This document shows, in pieces, positions 25,912 through 37,500 of a DNA stretch of 38,954 nucleotides. Positions within the stretch are counted from its first letter, which is position 1, and every line of letters begins with the position of its first letter. Source of the stretch: Escherichia phage P762; sequence record MW876471; one strand, 5' to 3'. Below the pieces are notes generated by a model. That model was not told where the DNA came from. It worked only from the letters and a program-made list of their open reading frames with translations, and searched no databases. A program made the translations under genes and the position numbers.

Positions 25912-26304
25912 TTACTTGCATATCAGTGGGTTAGCGTGCAGATGACTGAAGTCACCGTGAGTCGTGTGCTTGATGGTTGACCGTTGGTCTATCGCCTTCC
26001 AGCCTGAGACCAGAAGTTTACCATCGTCGGTGATTGGTCGTCCACCATACGCCAGCCACATCAGCTCGGACTTATGGCCCTCTGCCATGAGTCGTGCCCG
26101 CAGTACACGGTCGCGCTCCTGCTGTTGACGTGCGGTGTATGACGAGTGGCGATGCACATAATCGGTCTTGTTCCCGGTCTTCTCCCAGTAGTTGCGACCG
26201 CGAGAGTCCGTGCCGACGTACTTCCACTCTACGCCGTTCTTATCAGTGAATGTGCGAAGCGATATGATTGAGTCCATTGCGTGTCCCAGATTTGACATAT
26301 TCAT
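25912..26304 (-). CDS. hypothetical early protein (130 aa) where T7 has the gp0.7 kinase
   Basis: ORF with GGGAG SD; ATG overlaps upstream gene stop (TAATG); no kinase motifs. Confidence 0.7.
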   Translation of the reverse strand: MNMSNLGHAMDSIISLRTFTDKNGVEWKYVGTDSRGRNYWEKTGNKTDYVHRHSSYTARQQQERDRVLRARLMAEGHKSELMWLAYGGRPITDDGKLLVSGWKAIDQRSTIKHTTHGDFSHLHANPLICK

Positions 26305-26501
26305 TACAGTTTGCTCCCAAGTGTTGCTATATCCCAGACGTTCGCTAAGTTACGCGTGAATCGTCCGTTAGGTTGGCGTACAGTCCAGCGACCCAGACTT
26401 ACATGGTTGAATTTGTAGACGTTACGTGCCTTGTTGATGTCTCTCACCAGCACGTAGGCGATAAGTCCATAGCCTAAGATAACCAGAAGTCCCCAGCTCA
26501 T
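26304..26501 (-). CDS. small membrane protein (65 aa, one TM helix)
   Basis: internal ATG (MSWGLLVILGYGLIAYVLV...) used rather than the TTG start of the track ORF at 26606. Confidence 0.55.
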   Translation of the reverse strand: MSWGLLVILGYGLIAYVLVRDINKARNVYKFNHVSLGRWTVRQPNGRFTRNLANVWDIATLGSKL

Positions 26502-26590
26502 TAGAATGACCCTCGCTTGATTGCGTCCAGAAGGCCCCAAGCTATCAGAAAGATGATCGGAGATAAGCACACCCAGTAACCGATATTCAT
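26501..26590 (-). CDS. putative 29-aa hydrophobic peptide
   Basis: MNIGYWVCLSPIIFLIAWGLLDAIKRGSF with AGGAG SD; stop overlaps next ATG. Confidence 0.35.
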   Translation of the reverse strand: MNIGYWVCLSPIIFLIAWGLLDAIKRGSF

Positions 26591-26667
26591 AGTTAACTCC
26601 TATCAATGTAAGTGGTAATCTTTGAGGCCACCTATCAGTTAGATGACCTCTCGTCTATCACTCGCAG

Positions 26668-26793
26668 TTAGTAACCACCTGTCAGCGTTATGGTCAAGCT
26701 CTGGTGATTAGCCACGTAGCAAGCCCCGCGCTTCATCATCTCGTAGCACCCCTCGTAGAACGCCTGTTCACTGCTATAAGTTATCTGGTACAT
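26668..26793 (-). CDS. putative 41-aa early protein
   Basis: MYQITYSSEQAFYEGCYEMMKRGACYVANHQ... with GAGGA SD. Confidence 0.4.
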   Translation of the reverse strand: MYQITYSSEQAFYEGCYEMMKRGACYVANHQSLTITLTGGY

Positions 26794-26794
26794 G

Positions 26795-26941
26795 TTACTT
26801 GTCCTCACTGTCGTGTATGCGCTTGCGGCCCTCGTAGACCGCTTTCAGATGACGCATAGTCGCATCGTGGTTTAACTGCCCGGTCTTGACCATAATCCTG
26901 GCGTTGGTGACGTGGTGCTGGCAGAGACCATAAGTTACCAT
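26795..26941 (-). CDS. putative 48-aa early protein (gene 0.4 position)
   Basis: ATG overlaps ocr stop (ATGA); size and position like T7 gp0.4 but no sequence similarity recognised. Confidence 0.45.
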   Translation of the reverse strand: MVTYGLCQHHVTNARIMVKTGQLNHDATMRHLKAVYEGRKRIHDSEDK

Positions 26942-27273
26942 CACTCGCAGTCCTCTTCAGGCTCGAACCATACCACATCACGGCTATCAGACACATCGTT
27001 ATACAGTGCCTCGTAAATGCGAGCTTGCAGTATGCGCGTTACGTCCTTGGTATCAGGCATCAGCCCAGAGTCTTCGAACTCAATGTCTATACCATCAGCA
27101 GCCATCACCGTGAAAATCTCGTGGTAATAGTGCGGAACCTGACCGTCTACGACCTCATGCAGCGCATCGTGATAATCATCGCCTTCAGTTATTTCGTCGT
27201 ACTGAATGCGATCGTTAAATGCTTCAACAGTTGCAGCCAGCAGCTCATAGTATGCGTTAGCGTTACGTTCCAT
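26941..27273 (-). CDS. ocr: Ocr-like DNA-mimic anti-restriction protein (gene 0.3)
   Basis: acidic 110-aa protein; [41 protein letters not shown] almost identical to T7 Ocr. Confidence 0.93.
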
Positions 27274-27485
27274 AGTTATATCCTCTCAGTTGTTAGTGAC
27301 TATCAGTCAGGGCCTTCAGTCGCTCAAGTCAAGCCCGTCTCGCGGTAGACTCAAAGACCCTGTAGTTAGTCGCTATCGGCGCACATTAAGAGTTTATCCA
27401 GATTGTTAAAGAGCATTCGCGTTGGCTGTCGTCGCCGTGCTATCCCGTTTCAGTGTTGGGACTCACCGTTGTTTCAATGTGGTAC

Positions 27486-27515
27486 AGCTTACATCTTATC
27501 TTTACCGCTTGTCAA
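27486..27515 (-). promoter_or_regulatory. host sigma70-type early promoter (T7 A3-like)
   Basis: minus-strand TTGACA-18 nt-TAAGCT followed by GTACCACAT, as in T7 A2/A3. Confidence 0.6.
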
Positions 27516-27627
27516 CTACTTTCCGTCATCTGCCTGTTTTTCGTATGACTTATCAGGCTGTCTACTTGACCGGGATGACCCGGCGTCTTCACTATCCGGT
27601 GGGTGCCGTGTCGTGTTGACGGAAGCT

Positions 27628-27656
27628 ATTAAGCCATAGTCGAGACTTATAGTCAA
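27628..27656 (-). promoter_or_regulatory. host sigma70-type early promoter (T7 A1-like)
   Basis: minus-strand TTGACTATAAGTCTCGACTATGG-CTTAAT, close to T7 A1. Confidence 0.6.
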
Positions 27657-27808
27657 TAGGTGATTTGAAATTAATATTGATTAAACTATCGTCGGCCCCA
27701 TAGTGACTAAGAGGATATAGTCTTTGACTAACATGTCTTAGACCTTAAGTCTATAGCGTTGTGTCTATTAGCTGTATGTCTCTGACTGTAGGTGTTGGTG
27801 TCTTATGG

Positions 27809-27840
27809 CTGAGACTGTAGGTTGCTGAGACTGTAGGTTG
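27809..27840. repeat. 16-bp tandem direct repeat (ctgagactgtaggttg x2) within an array of short iterated motifs
   Basis: exact tandem duplication; nearby recurrent gactgtaggt, cctatgg and cctatcgt motifs, analogous to the short repeats next to the T7 terminal repeat. Confidence 0.7.
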
Positions 27841-27869
27841 TAGGACCTATGGCTGTTGAGACCTATGGT

Positions 27870-28058
27870 TATACAGATAGAGACTCAGAGACAGACCAAT
27901 AGTCCCAACCTATCGTCCCGACCTCCAGCCATAGCCTCAACCTATCGTTGACCTGAAGTCTTGACCATTGGTCCAACCTTATGATAAACTGGGGTAGGGC
28001 CTTTGGTCTGGACTGAAAGAGGGCCTATGGGGAGACTTGAGGTTCTTGAACTGTGAGA
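27870..28058 (-). repeat. predicted direct terminal repeat of the linear genome, single collapsed copy; left genome end near 28058
   Basis: minus strand from ~28058 reads TCTCACAGTTCAAGAACCTCAAGTCTCCCCATAGGCCC, homologous to the first bases of the T7 terminal repeat; boundaries inferred only. Confidence 0.45.
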
Positions 28059-28304
28059 TGTGGTCTCAAACTTTTGGTCCAAAACTCATCGTCCCTCCTT
28101 AGGAGCCAGCTACTGTAGGTCAAGGACCGTAGGTCTAAGACCATCGGATGACGACCAGTGAACCAATCAGTAGGTAGACCAGAAGTGAGAGCCTGAATGG
28201 TGTTACCTAAAGTCCTTGACTACAGTAGCTAAGGTCAGTAGAGTGAGTCTTTATCCACGTACTGACCTTAGGTCTTCCGCTCATGAATCGTTACCATGAT
28301 TGCG

Positions 28305-28463
28305 TTAATTACACTGAGACACCAGAGAACATACGAGAGTCTCGACCCACCCGACCCACTGACTTCCAGCAGTAACGCCAGCAGCAAGTAGAACAGCAGC
28401 AAGAAACCTGTATGTAGATCGATTGGTCGCCAGAGCTTTAAGTACAGCTTTGGTCTTTGCCAT
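28305..28463 (-). CDS. gp19.5-position small membrane protein (52 aa)
   Basis: AGGAGG SD; MAKTKAVLKALATNRSTYRFLAAVLLAAGVTAGSQWVGWV..., last gene before the genome end. Confidence 0.5.
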   Translation of the reverse strand: MAKTKAVLKALATNRSTYRFLAAVLLAAGVTAGSQWVGWVETLVCSLVSQCN

Positions 28464-28643
28464 ATGCTACATACCTCCTGTATCTATGGTCGGTGACTAT
28501 CTGTATTGGAGGGATTATGATTAATATCACCATCCTTCCATCGGTGCAAGCCTTAGGTAAGAACTCGGAGTCTGCCTCCTAAGGTCTTGCATAAAGTCTG
28601 CATATGTATATTCACTACAGTAATACTATAAGTAACCGGGGGT

Positions 28644-28666
28644 CTTCCCTATAGTGATAGTTAAGT
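28644..28666 (-). promoter_or_regulatory. phage RNAP promoter (phiOR position, after the terminase gene)
   Basis: plus-strand ttccctatagtgatagttaag. Confidence 0.75.
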
Positions 28667-28760
28667 CCAAACTCCTTGTAAAACAGTAGGTTAGACTGGT
28701 AGTAACTATAGGTTACTAACCGCGTATTAATGCAGTTTTCACCCATAGTTATTCATACAG

Positions 28761-30524
28761 CTAGTGGAACGTAACGTATGACCCTAGTCCTAGCTCGTCG
28801 TCAGTATCGTGAGTTACCCGGACCCCATTGTCCCAGAACTCAGTGTGGATGGACTCGAAGCCTTTCCGTGGGTTCTCCATCTGTTCCTCCAGCCACTCCT
28901 CAGTGACTTCACGTTCGCCTTTGTTGGCATCCTTAGCCATAGACTCAACGAAGAACTGCACACCGATAGCCAGCGCATCAAGTCGGTCATCGTGTGCCAA
29001 TGCTCCACGTTCACGAGAGATACGGGTCATCTGGTAGAAGAGAGAGTAGATAGGGTTACGAACACCATCCTTGTCAGAGGCTGTCTGGTAGTCTTGGACG
29101 ATAGCAGCAGCGTTGACGATAAGTCTGTGAGACCCCATGATAGGCTCCAGAACGTCACAGATGCGGAGTTCTTTCTGACCCTTACTCTTCACTTCAGTTA
29201 CAGCCGCAGGATGTATACGTGCCGCTACAGGCTTGAATAGCTCAAGGTACATACCATCACCGAAGTTACCCTCAATGACGTATTCGTTGACCTTCCACTT
29301 ACGACCAATCTTAGCCAAGGCTTCCAGCGTAGAGTCTTCATAACCACCACGCATACCACCAACTTCCATAGCGAAGATGTAACCGTTTAGCTGATACAGT
29401 ACCGCATAACCAGTTTCATCCTTACCACGACCACTAGGGTCAATGACCAGAATCTTCTGGGTGTACGAACTGAAGGCAGAACCTACAGTCTGATACGTGT
29501 GGTATGAGTCACCCATGAGTCCAACGTTAGGGACGTCCTCGCGCTTGTTCTGAGGGTTTGGCAGCCATTGGTAGACCATTGGGCTGGACGCTGGGTCCAA
29601 GTCGGCTACGATAAGGTCACGGAGCTTCAGAGGGTACTTCTCAGCATCACTCAGGTTCGGGTTAAGCATGAATTGTAGAGCGAAGCCAGCTTTACCATAG
29701 GACAGCTCACGTTCCTTCAGGTCCGTATCATCAAATCGTACTTCGTCTGTCGGACGCCAGTAGAAGGACTCAGGGTCCTCTTCCAGTTCTGCCTGAAGCA
29801 TAGGAGCCAGACGGTCGCCGTAAGACTGCCAGTCCTTCCTGTCGCGTGGATAACGAGCTGGCCAGATAGTAGTGGTATACCCACGACCCTCCAACTCACG
29901 ATACAGGGTCATCTCGTTCTGAGGAGTGCCCAGATAGATGATTGTACCTCCCGGCTTCAGGATAGCGTCGAACTCTTTCACAAGCTCTGACAGTCGGTCT
30001 CGCGCAGCCTGAGTAGCAGAGTTGTTTGGAACCTCCACGTCATCAGCAATAAGGATGTCAGCACGACTACCAGTCAACTGACCAGTGATGCCAACGGACT
30101 TAACCGAAGGTGAGTGGTCCGGCTTTGCTGGTCCAACGTCGAAGCTGATAACCGCATCCCTCTGTCCCTGCTTAGGTTTGAGTTCCTGAAGCTGAGGCAT
30201 GAGGTCGATGATTCGCTTGATGAAGATGGAGTTAGCATCTGCTCGTTCCTTTGAGGCCGACACAATCATGAACTTCAAGTCTGGGTTATTCCATAGCTTC
30301 CAGACCACGAAGGCACACGTAATGAAGGACTTCCCGATACCACGGAACGCCTGTAGGATGAAACGCCTGTTGTCCCCAGCCGATAGTTTCTTCGCCATGT
30401 CAATCTGGCAGCGAGTTGGTACTGGGAGTGACAGAGCTTTCCACAGGACGAACAGGAAGAACACGAAGTCTGCCTTCATACGGGCAGTCATTAGCGCCTG
30501 ACGCGCCACTAAGTCTTTACTCAA
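28761..30524 (-). CDS. gp19: terminase large subunit gp19
   Basis: 587 aa; [125 protein letters not shown] blocks match T7 gp19. Confidence 0.97.
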
Positions 30525-30536
30525 TGCGTCACCTCC

Positions 30537-31328
30537 TTATACGTTAAAGATTCGGTCTACACGTACTGTAAGCGATGATAACGTTAGGTCTTCTGACCCA
30601 GTAACGATGATACCAAGCATGATGCCAGTTTCTACAAACGGGTCGTCCGAATCAGCGATGTAGCTGTGGATAGCTGATTCACGGATGGTGAAGAGCTTCT
30701 GGTCAGATGTATCCGTAACAGACGATAAGGTCGTATTATCTGGGCGACGAAGCTGCACTCTCCATTTATGAGACGTTTCTGTAGGGAATTCACCAGCGAA
30801 TCGAACTACGAAGTTTACACCACTTAGCCCCTCTTTAGCTGGGAATATCATCTTTCCGTCTGAGATAGTCACAACACCGCTGTTAACTCCCCTAACTAAA
30901 GGTAGAGTCATTAGGTTAGTGAACTGTCCAGCCGTACACACTTGAGTCCCTGACCAATTGAATGTGTCTAGAGAATACTCAGCGTGAGAGACAGGACGCG
31001 ATTCTCGATAGGTATACTCCACCTTAACCAGCCCGATTCCACTATCATCCAGCTTGGCGACCTTAAGAATTAGGAAACCATCTTCAGTAGCCCCATCAAC
31101 TTCCAGACGCACACTTTCTGTCTGTAAGGGCCAGCCTCCACCATCGGAGAAATTACCAGTAGTAGACGTACCGTCGCTTAGTGTAATTTTAGTAGACTCA
31201 GCGTTAGCTGGGACCTTCACGTATATTGTTCCAGCCAATAAGTGACCGGATGGGTTCTTCAATCCAGTTGGTGCTCCAGTCACAAAGTGCCACACCACGT
31301 CAGTTTTCAAAGTAATGATGTTACCCAT
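30537..31328 (-). CDS. hypothetical protein (263 aa) inserted between Rz/Rz1 and large terminase
   Basis: AAGGAG SD; start overlaps Rz stop; beta-rich, Gly/Thr/Ser/Val-rich; T7 has no gene here. Confidence 0.8.
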   Translation of the reverse strand: MGNIITLKTDVVWHFVTGAPTGLKNPSGHLLAGTIYVKVPANAESTKITLSDGTSTTGNFSDGGGWPLQTESVRLEVDGATEDGFLILKVAKLDDSGIGLVKVEYTYRESRPVSHAEYSLDTFNWSGTQVCTAGQFTNLMTLPLVRGVNSGVVTISDGKMIFPAKEGLSGVNFVVRFAGEFPTETSHKWRVQLRRPDNTTLSSVTDTSDQKLFTIRESAIHSYIADSDDPFVETGIMLGIIVTGSEDLTLSSLTVRVDRIFNV

Positions 31329-31773
31329 TGTCGTTCTCCTTGCCTTGTTGAAGTTTGCGAATAGTATCCTGTAGTGCTTTAATCCAAGCGTCCCCTTTTA
31401 GTCCGATGGCGATAAGACGTTTAGCATCTCGTTCGTCAAGTTCGGCGTAACCATCAATGATGCATCGACCGTCACTTTGCGTGGCTCCACTCGTAGGTTT
31501 GACTCGGATGCGCAGCCGCTTATTGTCAGACTGAAGGTCAGCAATAATCCTATCAGTGCTGCCTTCCAGCGAGGACATTTCGTCCTGAAACCGTTTGGAC
31601 ACTTTGTTGACTTCAGCTTGGACAGCAAGCCTTGTATCTTCCGATGCCTTAAGATTCGAGGTGTATTCTGCATTGACCTTAGCCTCCCACTTATTGTTAG
31701 CGGTGTGGTAGCCCCCAGCAAACATCACTGCTGCGAGTAACCACGGAGCCGCTCTCTTTAGAAATTCGAGCAT
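31321..31773 (-). CDS. gp18.5: Rz-like i-spanin (gp18.5)
   Basis: 150 aa, N-terminal TM segment then coiled-coil periplasmic domain; position after small terminase. Confidence 0.8.
   Translation of the reverse strand: MLEFLKRAAPWLLAAVMFAGGYHTANNKWEAKVNAEYTSNLKASEDTRLAVQAEVNKVSKRFQDEMSSLEGSTDRIIADLQSDNKRLRIRVKPTSGATQSDGRCIIDGYAELDERDAKRLIAIGLKGDAWIKALQDTIRKLQQGKENDNG
31398..31560 (-). CDS. Rz1-like o-spanin embedded in Rz in another frame (gp18.7), start uncertain
   Basis: embedded frame encodes ..ALIGLLLTFSLTISGCASES..: lipoprotein signal with lipobox-like I-S-G-C; no in-frame ATG nearby. Confidence 0.45.
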
Positions 31774-31830
31774 AGGCGCCCTCCCGGTTTATCAGATTTC
31801 ACGTAGAGTCTCCTCCACTAGTTAGTGTTA

Positions 31831-31872
31831 ACCATAAAGGCCACTACATACAGTAATGACCTTGAGTCTAAC
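31831..31872 (-). promoter_or_regulatory. conserved hairpin, candidate RNase III site (R18.5 position)
   Basis: RNA GUUAGACUCAAGGUCAU-loop-GUGGCCUUUAUGGUU, same stem as the other two sites. Confidence 0.5.
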
Positions 31873-31874
31873 AC

Positions 31875-32138
31875 TTATTGAACACCATACCCGGTGTCAT
31901 TATCTTCCGTAGCTGAGAGCACCTTATCGTACTCTGCGTTCAGGGCCTCCATATCAGCCAGCGTCTTCTCGTCCACAGACACCTTACTTAACACAAAGTT
32001 GTGACGAGCAAGCAGCTTCTCAATGGCGTTGTAAAGCTGAGGTGAACGCTTAGAGTCATCCCGCAGGTCTTGCAGCATGAGTCGAGCACGTTCAGTATCT
32101 AGCATTAAGAGGAACTTCTCTAAGTCCATCTGCGTCAT
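31875..32138 (-). CDS. gp18: terminase small subunit / DNA maturation protein gp18
   Basis: 87-aa ORF, size as T7 gp18 (89 aa), after the holin. Confidence 0.75.
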   Translation of the reverse strand: MTQMDLEKFLLMLDTERARLMLQDLRDDSKRSPQLYNAIEKLLARHNFVLSKVSVDEKTLADMEALNAEYDKVLSATEDNDTGYGVQ

Positions 32139-32329
32139 GTTTTACCACCTCCTTTAATCGTTTTGTAGACTAGCACACCAATCTGGACAACGGTGTACGC
32201 GATAGCTGCAACGTAGAACCATTCGTTCAGTGTAAGTCCGAAGAAGAACCGACTGGCACCATCAGCCGCAGCGGTCCCGACGATAGGAGAGGCTTTAAGG
32301 ACCTCATTCTTGAAGTCTAACTCAATCAT
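32135..32329 (-). CDS. gp17.5: class II holin gp17.5
   Basis: 64 aa; KA.PIVGT..AD...R.FFGL.LNEWFYVAAIAYTVVQIG block nearly identical to T7 gp17.5. Confidence 0.92.
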   Translation of the reverse strand: MIELDFKNEVLKASPIVGTAAADGASRFFFGLTLNEWFYVAAIAYTVVQIGVLVYKTIKGGGKT

Positions 32330-32381
32330 AAAACCTCCAGTTTAAAGCGGGTCGTCCGTGACCCAAAGTTGTTACCATACG

Positions 32382-34520
32382 TTAATCATTCTCAGTATTA
32401 TACATCAATACAACCGGACCTGTATACGTTGCCGTAGATGCCAGGTTAGTCATGTTGTAAGGCCGCATTCTAACCTGATTGGTACTAATGAGGCGGGCCT
32501 TAAGTAGCCATGTATCATCATTTGTGTTTGCTGATGTCTCTTGAATAATTACAGAGGTTGCAGGTTGAAAATGGTCTGGTATGTTTCTGGTTACCACTCT
32601 AGCTGTGTCTGTACTTGTTAGAGTAAAGAACTCCCGCCCTGATGTAGATATTGCTGTACAGTTCTCTGTATAGTTATTCCTAATATCTGGCCTACTTGTG
32701 CGACCCTCCGCTAAAGTCTTCATCTTAATAACACTAGTATTCATAGCAGTTCCTGTCGTGTTACGGAACCTGCACTCAGTAACCTTCACCTGATATGGGT
32801 TAGATATCAGATTAATAGCCACCCCATGCGGAGGCACTAACCAGTTACAAGCATTAATCGTAAAGCGTGCACCATCACCATTTGATTCAATAAGACATCC
32901 ATCAAAATAACAATTAGAAAACTGGTCAGCATTAGACATGATAACAACACGACCCTTAGTACTATCCGTATCCTGATCTGGATAGAAGTGACAGTTACTA
33001 AATGCGTTAGCACCTTTACGCAAAATCATAACGTCTTTGTACTGGGAACCGATGATAATATCGGAGAAGTTATTATCATAGCAGTCAATGTCTAAACCTA
33101 CACCCTCTGTAACATGGGAAGGGAACGGGTAACGCCAGTCTGGTTGCTGGAATATATGAGTTTTACCCATATTCAACTCATGAGGTGTAGACCCATTTGG
33201 TTGCATTTTTACCCCATGCTGCAAATACCTAGTTAACAATCCACCCCATACGGTTACTTTTAAGAAATCACCGGTAATACGAATAGAACTTGCTGCCTTC
33301 CAGTTAGCATCAATATTTGGGTTAAAAACAACAATATTTTCAATTGGTCGTATACCATTAACCTTACGAAAATCCAGTACAGCGTCCGTATTAGGGAAAG
33401 AACCAATAGCGATGAGTGAAGGGTTCATCACAGCAAAGTTAAGGCAGTCATCAATAGTAAATGAGCGAGATACATAGTAGGCACCTTGGCTCATATCAAA
33501 AACAGCACCCCCAAGGTTAAACATGTTTGGGTCTTCTCGGCCTGTAGGATATGCGGTCTTACGGTTTCTTGCAATTACACTATCTCTCCAAAGAGCTAAT
33601 GCATCCGAACTGTCGAAGGTAGCTACATTGGGTTTGGCTCCATAGTTCCTTGGATCGTCAACAGAATATGCTGATAGATAGCCAACGCACACCCAATCAT
33701 CATCTGGCGATGAGTTCGGTGGTACAGTTATCGTTCCAGATATTGGAGAGTAATACATGTTATCCAGTGGGTTCAAAAGTGCAGATTCATTAGCTGTCGC
33801 TGAACCTCCAGTTAAAAACGTAACACCAGATATTTTTTTATATTCAAGTGCCATAAAATATGACTCAGCCCACTGCCTTGCAGAGGCATCACCAACGCTA
33901 ACCCACGCACCTAATCCAATCCCGCCGGAAGTTTCAGGAGTTGAACCAGCAGGAACGTTCTTTGGAAGCGTACCATCCCAGCGGTAATAAGCACCATCCT
34001 CTTCCCATAGCAGCACCTCGTTCCATGTTATAACGTTGAAGCCTTTCTCGAAGGAGCGGCGGGTAATATAGCTAATTCGACCAGATGCCTTGATACTCTC
34101 AGCGATTCGTCGTGCTTCATCCTCGCTATCCTTAGCGTTGCCAGCAGAGTTACCAGCAGCATCGGCATATTCCTTCGCTAAGTCAACAGTTTGGTCTCGA
34201 CCTTCTTCTGAAATATGGATAGCCTGAAGCTCTGCATTGGTCAGGTCACTAGCTGTCAACACTGATCCATTCCTGAAGTCTACCACTAAGTCAGTTCCAG
34301 TCTGACGGTGAATACGAACGATGTCAAAACCTGATTGGTCAACCAACATCTCAATCATCGTTGGATTAAGGAATCTGTAATCTCTACCAACTTCCAGTAC
34401 ACGGTTCAGGGTAGGGTTAGAGCTATTCACCAGCGTAACAACAACAAACGTTCTTGCTAGGTAGTCGAACTCAATCCTGTACTGAGTGTTTCCTGAAGGG
34501 AATTGTGTAATCGTGGACAT
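32382..34520 (-). CDS. gp17: tail fibre/tailspike gp17: T7-type N-terminal adaptor plus unrelated beta-helix-like, probably enzymatic, C-terminal domain
   Basis: N-terminal ~150 aa ([31 protein letters not shown]) match T7 gp17; the remaining ~560 aa are unrelated to T7 fibre, AT-richer, with [16 protein letters not shown]-type repeats. Confidence 0.9.
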
Positions 34521-34565
34521 TATGCCTCCTTTGTGATTTAAATGGAGACCTATGGTAGCGCCTCC

Positions 34566-34588
34566 GTTTCCTATAGTGATAGTTTAGT
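34566..34588 (-). promoter_or_regulatory. phage RNAP promoter (phi17 position)
   Basis: plus-strand tttcctatagtgatagtttag. Confidence 0.8.
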
Positions 34589-37500
34589 CCTTGATGTGGA
34601 TACCTTGCTCCTCAAACGTTCCCAGTAGCAACTTCTGGGTAATTGGGTCGTTCGGAACCAGTTCACGGAACGTATTATACATCCCGGTCATGTAGTCACG
34701 CTCGTTAACACGAGTATCAGCCTTGAGGTAGCCAGCCAAGTTGTAAGCCGAAGCGCCAACGTTAGCAGCATATCCGAAAGCTGGGACCTGCTCCAAGAAG
34801 TTACCAACAACATTCATCACAGGGTCACTTGTAGCCGCACCATATGTGATAGCACGTTCAGGCTTCTCTGTAGGTGAACGAGGTAGGATAGACGAGCGGA
34901 GCATCTTAGTGTCCTCATACCCAGCGATACCGCCAAGAATATTAGCGACCCCAAGTGGTCCACCTAGATGTGAACTACGGGACAGAGCCGCATAGCCGAT
35001 CATCGTCGGGTTCAGAGCTTGCTTGAGATACTCACGGTCTCGACCATCCTGCATAGCGTAAGCCTTGATGTGAGCCTGAGCCATGTAGTAGATACCAGCA
35101 AGACCCATAGACATCACAGTGGACAGGGCGGCGTCCATCGCTCGGTTATTCTTCGTGGCGTTATAGAAGGTTCGCATGGTTCGCCCATTGATGGACTTGA
35201 TGACGAAGTTCTTAAACTGAAGGACAGTCTTAGCGAGAGGACTATAAGCCTTGGCGTCCATGTTTGACAGCTTGTGGGGCCGGAGTAACGTTTCGTCAGC
35301 GATGGTGTCACCCATACGCCACAGGTCCATAGCCCTTGGGTCCTGACTAAACGCCTTCTTATCCTTGATCGTGTACTTCCCGTCTGGACCACGAGTCACT
35401 GACTCACGGATTAATGACTTAATGCCCTTCCACTGCTCGTCAGAGATACCAGCGGTCTTCAGCCAGCGGTCATCGAACCGACGCTTACTACCAGTCAGAC
35501 TATGCTCCACTATGTCAGACAGGAAGCCTTGACGTCCAGCATCTAACAGGTAGTTTGTCGTACCGTTGAGGACTTTAGTTAACGGAGAGCGTACTGCAAG
35601 TTCACCAGTGTAATACTTGGCAGTCCCCAGAGCTGTAGCCGTACCACGACCGAGGTCACTGTAAGACCGCAGACGGTCAATGACATCCTGTTTAGACGGA
35701 CGGATTGAGTCATCCAGTTCCTTACCGAATATAACATTGTGCAGGTCCTTAATCTCTGAGGCCCCTACCTTCTTGTTACGGAAGGCTAGGTCACGGAACA
35801 TCGGGACTCCATGTAGTAGCGCACGAACGTTACCACGAGCCAGCATACCACCAATCTCCGTTAAGTTCTGAATACCCATGTAGGCATTCTTAGCGAAGAA
35901 CGATAGGTCTGTCATTGTGCGCAGAACGGTATTGAAGGCTGCATCGTCGGCACCATCACGTCGAGCACGACCGGTGAGAATCTTCAAGGTGTCACGTAAG
36001 GTAGATACCTCACCTTTCAACTTACCGTCATCCCCAGCCTTGTTCATCATGGTCTCAACCAAGTCCTTCATGTCCTTCGTGGTCTTTCCTGTACCAGCCA
36101 TGATAGCTATGTCCCCATTAACTCGACGGTTGTACGCCGGAACAATCTTGTCCATGTCCCACTCACGCAGGTTGTTGACACTGAAGGTCTGACCATTAGG
36201 TAGGACGATTGACATATCGCTATCGAACAGGTTACGAGCCTCAAGGAAGCTGTTGTTCTCCAGACCAACCAGACCGTTGATGTTCTCTTCCATTACGGAT
36301 GAGCGTTCGAACTGCTCGGTGTGAGAGATACCGTAAGCCTTATCGTTGGCGTACTTATCGACCGCAGCCGCAAGTCCTTCTGGAGTCAACGTAGGGTCAG
36401 CCTCTAAGAGTGCCTCGTCCACGCGTTTCTTTACTTCAGGTCGAGACGCATAGCTGGTCAACCATGACTTCTTGATGGCCTCCTGCAACGCCTCTGGACT
36501 CCCAAGCTCCTTGATGTACAGCTCCTTCATCTGTTTGCTATACACATGAGGGACGTAGGTTCCCTTGAAGCGGCTACCCGGAAAGATAGACTGAGCGTCT
36601 GGCCGACCAAACATAGCTGGGTTCTCCATCATCTCACGCTTGGCGTCAAACTGGTTCTTCAGCAGGTCATAGACTTTCAGTTCTCCCGGAGTCAGTTCAG
36701 CCTTCAGGTTTCCGCTACCATCTTCGATAGCCATAGACACACGCTGGTAGATGTCCTGACGGAATGCGCCAGAGTCTCGCCAGAATGCTGTCTGGAAGTA
36801 CGGGTCCTTTAGTGCCTCAGTAACCGCATCGTCGATGTCATTGTAGAACCGATGGTCCACAGCACGAAGTCTCTCGAATACGTCTGACGCAGTGGTCCCG
36901 ATTTTACCTGAAGCACCAGACTGCATACCAGTTGGTGAACGCACTAAGTCAGCAGCGACTCCACGAATCTCAGGGTTCTCAGACCGAAGCAGCTTCAGGC
37001 CAATCTCAGTCAGACCACCAAGGTTCACACCAGCAGCGGCACGTTCAGGCTCAATCACTTCGTCAAAGACCTGACGTGTCTTAGGGTTCAGAGGGTTCTC
37101 ACCAATCAGGATTGAACCATCTTCAAGTCGTACACTACCCGGCTCGTTAGGAACGTCAGCGAACTTAACGCCTTGATGACTAAAGGTCTGCTCACCTTCC
37201 TGAATAGGGAGACGAGACAGGTCCTGACCATCAACGTTACGAGCGGTCTCACGAGCTTCCAGACGTGTAGCTGGACCAGCAAACTCATTAGTGTTGCGGC
37301 CCAAGGCTCTTCCTAGTCCATCAGCGATAGCAGTCATACCCCCACCGAAGAGAGCACCACCAAGGATAGCCTCAGCCACATGAGCATCACCACCAGCCAC
37401 TGATGTACGGGCCATCTCTGACACACCAGCAAGTGCTCCAGATTGAGCAGCCACGGTGAACATCTTGTTGACCAGCTTACCACCTTTGCCAACCTGTCCA

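Follow-up and report, generated by a model that had tools for sequence, protein, structure and literature searches.

Replacement of the receptor module behind a conserved anchor is a standard route of host change and has been documented in K1F-like, N4-like, P22-like and Ackermannviridae phages. Pas et al. 2023 reported that receptor-binding domains move horizontally between Kayfuna-, Gamaleya-, Kutter-, Kaguna- and other viruses (PMC10408124). In their scheme "motif one" is a conserved motif that lies at the 3' end of the DNA encoding the anchor and is shared across lytic genera, and "motif three" is a conserved terminator-like motif downstream of the gene (PMC10408124). The receptor-binding proteins of Kayfunavirus were in the same survey commonly O-serogroup-specific (PMC10408124). 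Here we analyze the gp17 tailspike gene of Escherichia phage P762 in sequence record MW876471, whose full 38,954 nucleotides (nt) we refer to as the window. The gene product, QUR34677.1, was identified by an exact-sequence look-up and is deposited in GenBank as a "hypothetical protein"; a literature search on phage P762 found no paper.

P762 is a Kayfunavirus, that is, a K1F-like coliphage of the T7 family, and QUR34677.1 is its gp17. Over its initial 25 kb the window has 92-95% identity to Kayfunavirus genomes, for example ST31, TM1, and Bas105, and the late genes around gp17 follow the order known from T7 and K1F, reversed in the window, with gp17 in the same position as in K1F. The reading that we favor, and which we consider probable, is that gp17 is a two-module tailspike where a conserved anchor carries an acquired beta-helix cassette that cleaves the OX18-type O-antigen or a related structure. 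The features discussed below are collected in Table 1.

Extent of the conserved anchor

The conserved part of gp17 was delimited by comparison at the DNA level. Among 50,697 phage records, 161 match the gp17 DNA, including the K1F endosialidase gene, and all of them match only nucleotides 1-635 of the gene, with identities of 90-96%. The K1F gene is approximately 96% identical to that of P762 up to nucleotide 635 (residues 1-211), and when the identity was followed in sliding windows of 60 nt it stayed at 0.9-1.0 until the window starting at nucleotide 571, was 0.75 at nucleotide 601, and amounted to a background level of approximately 0.45 from nucleotide 631 onward. This drop in the K1F profile places the module boundary at residue ~212. 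An earlier reading made from the DNA letters without database searches (the sequence-only reading) had placed it at residue ~150 (window position 34100), which is about 60 residues too early. Thus P762 gp17 resembles K1F gp17 in the genus backbone, the gene position, the initial 635 nt, and the 3' flank starting at the stop codon, but differs from it in the remainder of the gene, as the K1F protein is an endo-N-acetylneuraminidase of 1064 amino acids.

Two domains are recognized within the anchor. The Pfam family Phage_T7_tail (PF03906) covers residues 10-115 with a score of 56.2 bits (E=4e-15; the cut-off is 25.2), and the structure of T7 gp17 (PDB 7boz) aligns to residues 6-126 only (E=4e-16), corresponding to residues 12-136 of the 553-residue T7 chain. 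The likeness to T7 is thus restricted to the N-terminus, as had been claimed from the sequence. The accompanying claim that everything past residue ~150 is unrelated holds for residues 212-712, but not for residues 149-211, which match Tail_spike_N (PF18668) with 72.4 bits (E=3e-20; the cut-off is 25), have a guanine-plus-cytosine (GC) content of 0.50, and belong to the conserved anchor; TSP1, TSP3, and TSP4 of phage CBA120 in the PDB align to the same residues. Residues 1-226 taken together align end-to-end with PDB entry 9vvr_A, a "Tail spike protein" of 843 residues present in 18 chains (E=8e-131), and judged from this alignment 9vvr is a solved structure of essentially the gp17 anchor. A literature search for a paper describing 9vvr found none. 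The C-terminal receptor module of 9vvr is, in contrast to the anchor, unrelated in sequence to that of gp17, and only a spurious weak segment aligns.

Homology with T7 and the 9vvr particle structure, together with general knowledge of podovirus tailspikes, suggests that residues 1-211 fix trimers of the protein to the tail. Homologous anchor structures point to gp17 being a homotrimer, and the 18 chains of 9vvr are consistent with six trimers per particle.

Composition and junctions of the cassette

It is clear from the base composition that residues 212-712 differ from their surroundings. The GC content is 0.415, and 0.347 at third codon positions (GC3), with practically the same values for residues 227-712 (0.413 and 0.346), while the whole window has a GC content of 0.500. 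Residues 151-226 have a GC of 0.504 and a GC3 of 0.447, and the genes adjoining gp17 fall between 0.46 and 0.52 in GC and between 0.43 and 0.57 in GC3. The DNA encoding residues 227-712 has the lowest GC of all 1458-nt windows in the whole sequence, approximately 3.9 standard deviations under the mean, so the distal part of gp17 is indeed more AT-rich than the genome, as had been noticed from the letters. The cassette DNA had no nucleotide match among the 50,697 phage records.

The cassette forms a deep minimum in a wider region (26237-34682) of mildly low GC (0.47 versus 0.50) that includes late genes on both sides of gp17 and has a deficit exceeding that of block shuffles. The segment of maximum GC deficit was tried as a locator of the junctions and returned this broad region, which was of no use; the junctions were instead placed by DNA alignments.

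Both crossover points can be read at the nucleotide level. In a four-way DNA alignment the window sequence tracks K1F until the stretch GGTGCGTGGGTTAGYGTTGGTGATGC and an N4-like locus (L003) from there on. These 26 nt, which encode GAWVSVGDA, are identical or nearly identical in the window, K1F, the N4-like locus, and a second contig of the Kayfunavirus type. At the 3' end of the gene the window tracks L003 until ...GATTAAC and K1F from AACGTATG... onward. Since one and the same TAAC marks the end of the homology to L003 and the return of that to K1F, the exchanged cassette corresponds exactly to residues 212-712. The 5' crossover of P762 maps to the stretch described as "motif one", whereas no equivalent of "motif three" was found downstream of P762 gp17: past the 3' crossover there is neither an extended shared motif nor a terminator-like site. 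The N4-like locus has a GC-rich hairpin at the stop codon of its gene, and the window is without a hairpin there.

Within the cassette the DNA identity to L003 is 82-98%, and the L003 genome has a GC content of 0.43, with 0.42 for its tailspike gene. We therefore propose that recombination with a phage lineage of lower GC brought in the cassette, with the nearest copy that we found residing in an N4-like phage of 0.43 GC. Two points weigh against taking the N4-like phages as the donor. The match in GC content is the only argument for transfer in the direction from N4-like phage to Kayfunavirus, and the copies in P22-like prophages are also AT-rich compared to their flanks (0.38 versus 0.50). 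A lineage of the N4-like type fits as the ultimate source from its composition, and a third source is possible.

The distal end of the cassette shows a deviation of its own. Residues ~580-670 (~32510-32780), which span the final rungs of the beta-helix and the first part of the C-terminal domain, have only 58-77% nucleotide identity to the two closest relatives versus 90-100% elsewhere, which suggests a further exchange of a sub-module or fast evolution at the distal end.

The module is found behind other anchors

Homologues were searched for with residues 227-712 as the query. Among 5.8 billion proteins 14 matches were obtained, with 29-93% identity, and when 1.84 billion cluster representatives (clustered at 50% identity) were scanned exhaustively with HMMER, 39 matches were found. 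Such low numbers in libraries of this size show that the module family is rare.

Even so few homologues are distributed over different virion types, and the C-terminal module occurs at 49-93% amino acid identity behind at least four other anchors, those of N4-like and P22-like phages among them. The T7-type anchor is represented by P0002, a protein from a T7-like contig that is 93% identical to gp17 over the full length. A TSP1/gp66-type anchor is found in P0001 and P0004, encoded on contigs of 70-72 kb that also encode homologues of N4 gp1 and gp2. The P22 head-binding anchor precedes the module in P0006, P0009, and P0016, with a P22-like prophage as the carrier, P0021 has the N-terminus of a tail-collar fibre, and several further N-termini occur among the family members. 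The N4-like metagenome tailspike P0001 (657 residues, 71.6-kb contig) shares the cassette with P762 from the GAWVSVGDA stretch to the stop codon, with 93% identity at the protein level and 82-98% at the DNA level, but its anchor resembles CBA120 TSP1 and G7C gp66, and both the virion type and the downstream sequence differ.

Horizontal swapping of the receptor module, which the sequence-only reading had proposed, is shown directly by this distribution and by the two crossovers. It is well established that conserved anchors occur with swapped beta-helix modules and that the end of the anchor is a hotspot of recombination, and P762 adds no new principle to this. What is new is modest: a function is proposed for a protein deposited as "hypothetical", the junctions are exact to the nucleotide and make gp17 a clean worked example of recombination at the GAWVSVGDA stretch, and the module belongs to a candidate OX18-specific family that is uncharacterised.

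Predicted fold of the cassette

Residues 227-712 were modelled as a monomer with AlphaFold2 on the 14-sequence alignment, giving a mean predicted local distance difference test score (pLDDT) of 82 and a predicted template modelling score (pTM) of 0.70. In the predicted structure a small beta domain comes first and a helical cap second; they are followed by a right-handed parallel beta-helix with about 10 rungs, and a beta-sandwich forms the C-terminus. Foldseek matched the model to the tailspikes of Sf6, K64-1, LKA1, CBA120, and HK620, and a fold search of BFVD gave further tailspikes, all unnamed. According to the model the cassette is thus a right-handed parallel beta-helix of the pectin-lyase fold, in agreement with the beta-helix-like distal part anticipated from the letters. 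The tailspikes of Sf6, HK620, P22, and CBA120, which cleave O-antigen, are those that the distal part of gp17 resembles most in predicted fold and presumed function, but the identity to Sf6, HK620, P22, and CBA120 TSP2-4 is as low as 8-12%, with no match at the sequence level.

Sequence profiles do not recognize this fold. A Pfam search with residues 227-712 gave no match down to the permissive threshold of E<=1, neither to Pect-lyase_RHGA_epim (PF12708) nor to Beta_helix (PF13229) nor to any other family; among 20 relatives, sub-threshold matches were seen to PF12708 in four and to PF13229 in one. A sequence search of the PDB and a profile search based on the 14 sequences, both with the distal module, matched only the N-terminal anchors of other proteins and did not inform on the enzyme class.

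The repeated N-C-x-F/Y motifs that had been taken as a mark of beta-helix enzymes are real as a periodicity, but weaker than claimed. The strict motif occurs twice (SNCHFY at 509 and SNCYFD at 536), while a looser version, [DNAE]-C-x-[aromatic or other], is found on about seven rungs (C359, C480, C510, C537, C558, C583, and C621). From C480 onward these cysteines are spaced 21-38 residues apart and form a ladder as in beta-helices.

The small beta domain at the start of the model has a distribution different from that of the rest of the module. The first ~80 residues of the cassette are 41-58% identical to about 20 otherwise unrelated tailspikes of 560-1090 residues, and the matches to this domain only (P0023, P0025-P0030, and others) lie entirely within query residues 1-87. 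It has the appearance of a "neck" unit, shuffled separately and placed between the anchor and the beta-helix.

The likely receptor and a proposed link to serogroup OX18

Information about the receptor comes from the P22-like prophage tailspike of OX18 strains (WP_023156183.1, identical to P0006; 632 residues). This protein has 70% amino acid identity to gp17 over residues 222-712, and both genes are AT-rich compared to their flanks. It differs from gp17 in its anchor, which is the P22 head-binding domain (PF09008), and in belonging to a temperate phage, and the DNA identity is only approximately 70%. Among 5426 complete E. coli genomes, the prophage tailspike is carried by eight. Strain 2014C-4587 has an O-antigen cluster of six genes between galF and gnd (L008 25026-31209), and this cluster was found with at least 99% identity in 12 of the 5426 genomes, while a sensitive search with its genes revealed no diverged versions elsewhere in these genomes. 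Six of the eight tailspike carriers are among the 12 genomes with the cluster (hypergeometric P=7e-16). Two of the carriers, JNE170426 and JNE181771, are Shiga-toxin-producing E. coli (STEC) of the provisional serogroup OX18 (PMC8084502), an emerging STEC serogroup that is not agglutinated by commercial O1-O188 antisera (PMC8084502). The co-occurrence and the typing of the carriers make O-antigen the most likely class of receptor, and OX18 would be the best specific guess for the module family. If this link is true, the module could be used for detection of OX18 or for engineering of phage host range.

The link is weakened by the fact that it was obtained with a homologue of 70% identity, the P762 copy being 30% diverged, and by the two of eight prophage carriers that have no OX18 cluster; in one of these, Ec40743, the prophage is located at another site.

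We also considered that the receptor might be a capsular polysaccharide (K-antigen), as it is for K1F, the type member of the genus. The anchor of gp17 shares 96% identity with that of K1F gp17, which is specific for the K1 capsule, and the two carriers without the OX18 cluster would be in line with a receptor other than this O-antigen. However, the module has no similarity to endosialidase, its homologue in the P22-like prophages is adjoined by an acyltransferase gene of the Acyl_transf_3 family, and it co-occurs with a single O-antigen gene cluster as described above. The O-serogroup specificity that is common among Kayfunavirus receptor-binding proteins (PMC10408124) also argues against capsule, which we find rather unlikely as the receptor.

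Three further observations concern the OX18 genomes and the prophages in them. Half of the 12 complete OX18 genomes carry a P22-like prophage with the tailspike. In RefSeq three of the six genes in the OX18 cluster of 2014C-4587 are annotated as "hypothetical", one of them being weakly similar to O-unit flippases and another weakly similar to TolB propellers. The Acyl_transf_3 gene is situated beside the tailspike gene on the opposite strand (L002 7957-8943 and L006 7378-8364). Acyltransferase genes beside P22-like tailspikes often modify the O-antigen, and the prophage gene plausibly modifies O-antigen and blocks superinfection by phages using the same glycan.

Candidate active site and proposed enzymatic activity

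As mentioned above, the reading we favor has the beta-helix cleaving O-antigen. Nine residues, H447, E448, Q458, D482, N483, H511, Y538, F539, and D540, are invariant in an alignment of 20 family members with 19-93% identity (full-length residue numbers are alignment positions plus 226). D482, H511, and D540 sit 1-3 residues past the ladder cysteines C480, C510, and C537 on three consecutive rungs, and H447 and E448 are found one rung before. Because they occupy equivalent places on successive rungs, these residues should stack along one face of the helix, as active-site residues do in beta-helix glycanases, and the patch may be an active site or a binding site.

In the mechanism that we propose, the beta-helix would bind a polysaccharide on the host surface and most likely cleave it as an endoglycosidase, with E448, D482, and D540 together with H447 and H511 as candidate catalytic residues. 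Cleavage would let the virion work its way down to the outer membrane, and the beta-helix module would thereby set the host range. The invariant polar residues on the rungs and the OX18 association of the prophage homologue both point to depolymerase activity and to control of host range by the cassette, in line with the enzymatic function suggested from the letters. On the other side, the identity to every solved beta-helix enzyme is 7-16%, and no Pfam or NCBIfam enzyme family matches gp17.

A more far-reaching possibility, which we put forward tentatively, is that residues 212-712 represent a rare and uncharacterised family of O-antigen depolymerases, specific for OX18 and with a His-Glu / Asp / His / Asp ladder of its own on four rungs. 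None of the 39 family clusters has an above-threshold assignment to a Pfam or NCBIfam enzyme family. If such a family exists, P762 and its tailspike would be a ready reagent for detecting or targeting OX18 strains.

With the same architecture and history, the beta-helix could act as a polysaccharide lyase, cleaving by beta-elimination at a uronic acid, and not as a hydrolase. The invariant H447, H511, and Y538, along with the nearly invariant Y513, could serve as base and acid, and OX18 strains have an extra sugar epimerase gene of the short-chain dehydrogenase/reductase (SDR) type between ugd and wzzB, which we presume could encode a UDP-glucuronic acid (UDP-GlcA) 4-epimerase. The NCBIfam matches of this epimerase are, however, all far under the cut-offs, carboxylates (E448, D482, and D540) are abundant among the invariant residues, as is typical of glycosidases, and the hydrolase tailspikes of Sf6, HK620, and CBA120 (TSP2) score similarly in the fold search. 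A lyase mechanism therefore appears improbable to us.

A tailspike that binds the receptor and does not cleave it, or only modifies it (for example by deacetylation), would give adsorption with no depolymerisation. It would agree with the absence of a recognisable catalytic motif and of any enzyme-family match, activity being deduced from conservation and homologues. But that His, Glu, and Asp residues on consecutive rungs are kept invariant in sequences with identities down to 19% is easier to explain by catalysis than by the binding of diverse glycans, and nearly all of the nearest structural matches among phage proteins are active depolymerases. We regard a non-cleaving tailspike as very doubtful and retain an O-antigen-cleaving beta-helix as the probable function.

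Two other possibilities for the distal part can be dismissed. A T7-like shaft and tip are absent, by sequence as well as by fold: T7 gp17 aligns only with the N-terminal particle-binding domain at residues 6-126, with no coiled-coil shaft or tip, and it is missing from the profile search and from the listed fold matches; neither the uniform GC nor the T7-like distal structure that would have contradicted the sequence-only reading was found. An endosialidase of the K1F type (GH58) with a C-terminal chaperone can be set aside as well, since the homology to K1F ends at nucleotide 635, residues 227-712 are without a Pfam match, and the protein ends at residue 712 in a predicted beta-sandwich; a PDB search with gp17 gave no endosialidase structure at E<=1, and Pfam recognised no C-terminal chaperone domain.

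Table 1 Features of the P762 gp17 gene in the window.
Feature	Position	Strand	Basis
gp17 tailspike gene (Escherichia phage P762, QUR34677.1)	32382-34520	minus	Single open reading frame of 712 amino acids plus stop
T7 gp17-type N-terminal particle-binding (adaptor) domain, residues 1-126	34143-34520	minus	PF03906 and PDB 7boz
Tail_spike_N (TSP1/gp66-type) domain, residues 149-211, within the conserved Kayfunavirus anchor	33888-34076	minus	PF18668
5' crossover zone, 26-nt stretch GGTGCGTGGGTTAGYGTTGGTGATGC encoding GAWVSVGDA	33886-33911	minus	Four-way DNA alignment
AT-rich receptor-binding cassette, residues 212-712 plus stop (1.5 kb)	32382-33887	minus	Composition, no phage-record match, homologues behind other anchors
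Predicted small beta domain, residues ~227-280	33681-33842	minus	Strands at model residues 2-54
Predicted right-handed parallel beta-helix, residues ~334-619, ~10 rungs	32664-33521	minus	Run of short periodic strands in the model
Candidate active-site or binding patch (H447, E448, Q458, D482, N483, H511, Y538, F539, D540), four successive rungs	32901-33182	minus	Conservation
Predicted C-terminal beta-sandwich, residues ~628-708	32397-32639	minus	Long strands at model residues 402-482
3' crossover, at the stop codon (TAA-C)	32381-32384	minus	DNA alignment with N4-like L003 and K1F

Genes surrounding gp17

On one side gp17 is flanked by a gene for a gp16-like internal virion protein of 1301 residues, and on the other side by genes for a holin, a small packaging protein, and an Rz-like protein. 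The large terminase gene is separated from the Rz-like spanin gene by an open reading frame of 263 codons (30537-31328, minus strand), which overlaps the end of the spanin gene by 8 nt. This reading frame has no Pfam match, and the sole match in PHROG is to phrog_17779, a family of unknown function, in its C-terminal half. Full-length copies among the 50,697 phage records are limited to CLB_P1 (87% identity, annotated as "putative protease") and Providencia phage EPr2 (47%), with a partial copy in Bas105 and matches of approximately 33% in Salmonella and Escherichia phages of ~72 kb and in Aeromonas phages of ~52-54 kb. With this distribution and a slightly low GC content of 0.46 it appears as a sporadic accessory gene. 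In contig L001, which carries the gp17 homologue P0002, the slot after the spanin gene is occupied by an HNH endonuclease gene (PF13392; L001 3583-4020) in place of the 263-codon reading frame. From this comparison of P762 with L001, T7-like genomes of this kind seem to vary at a second site, the post-spanin slot.

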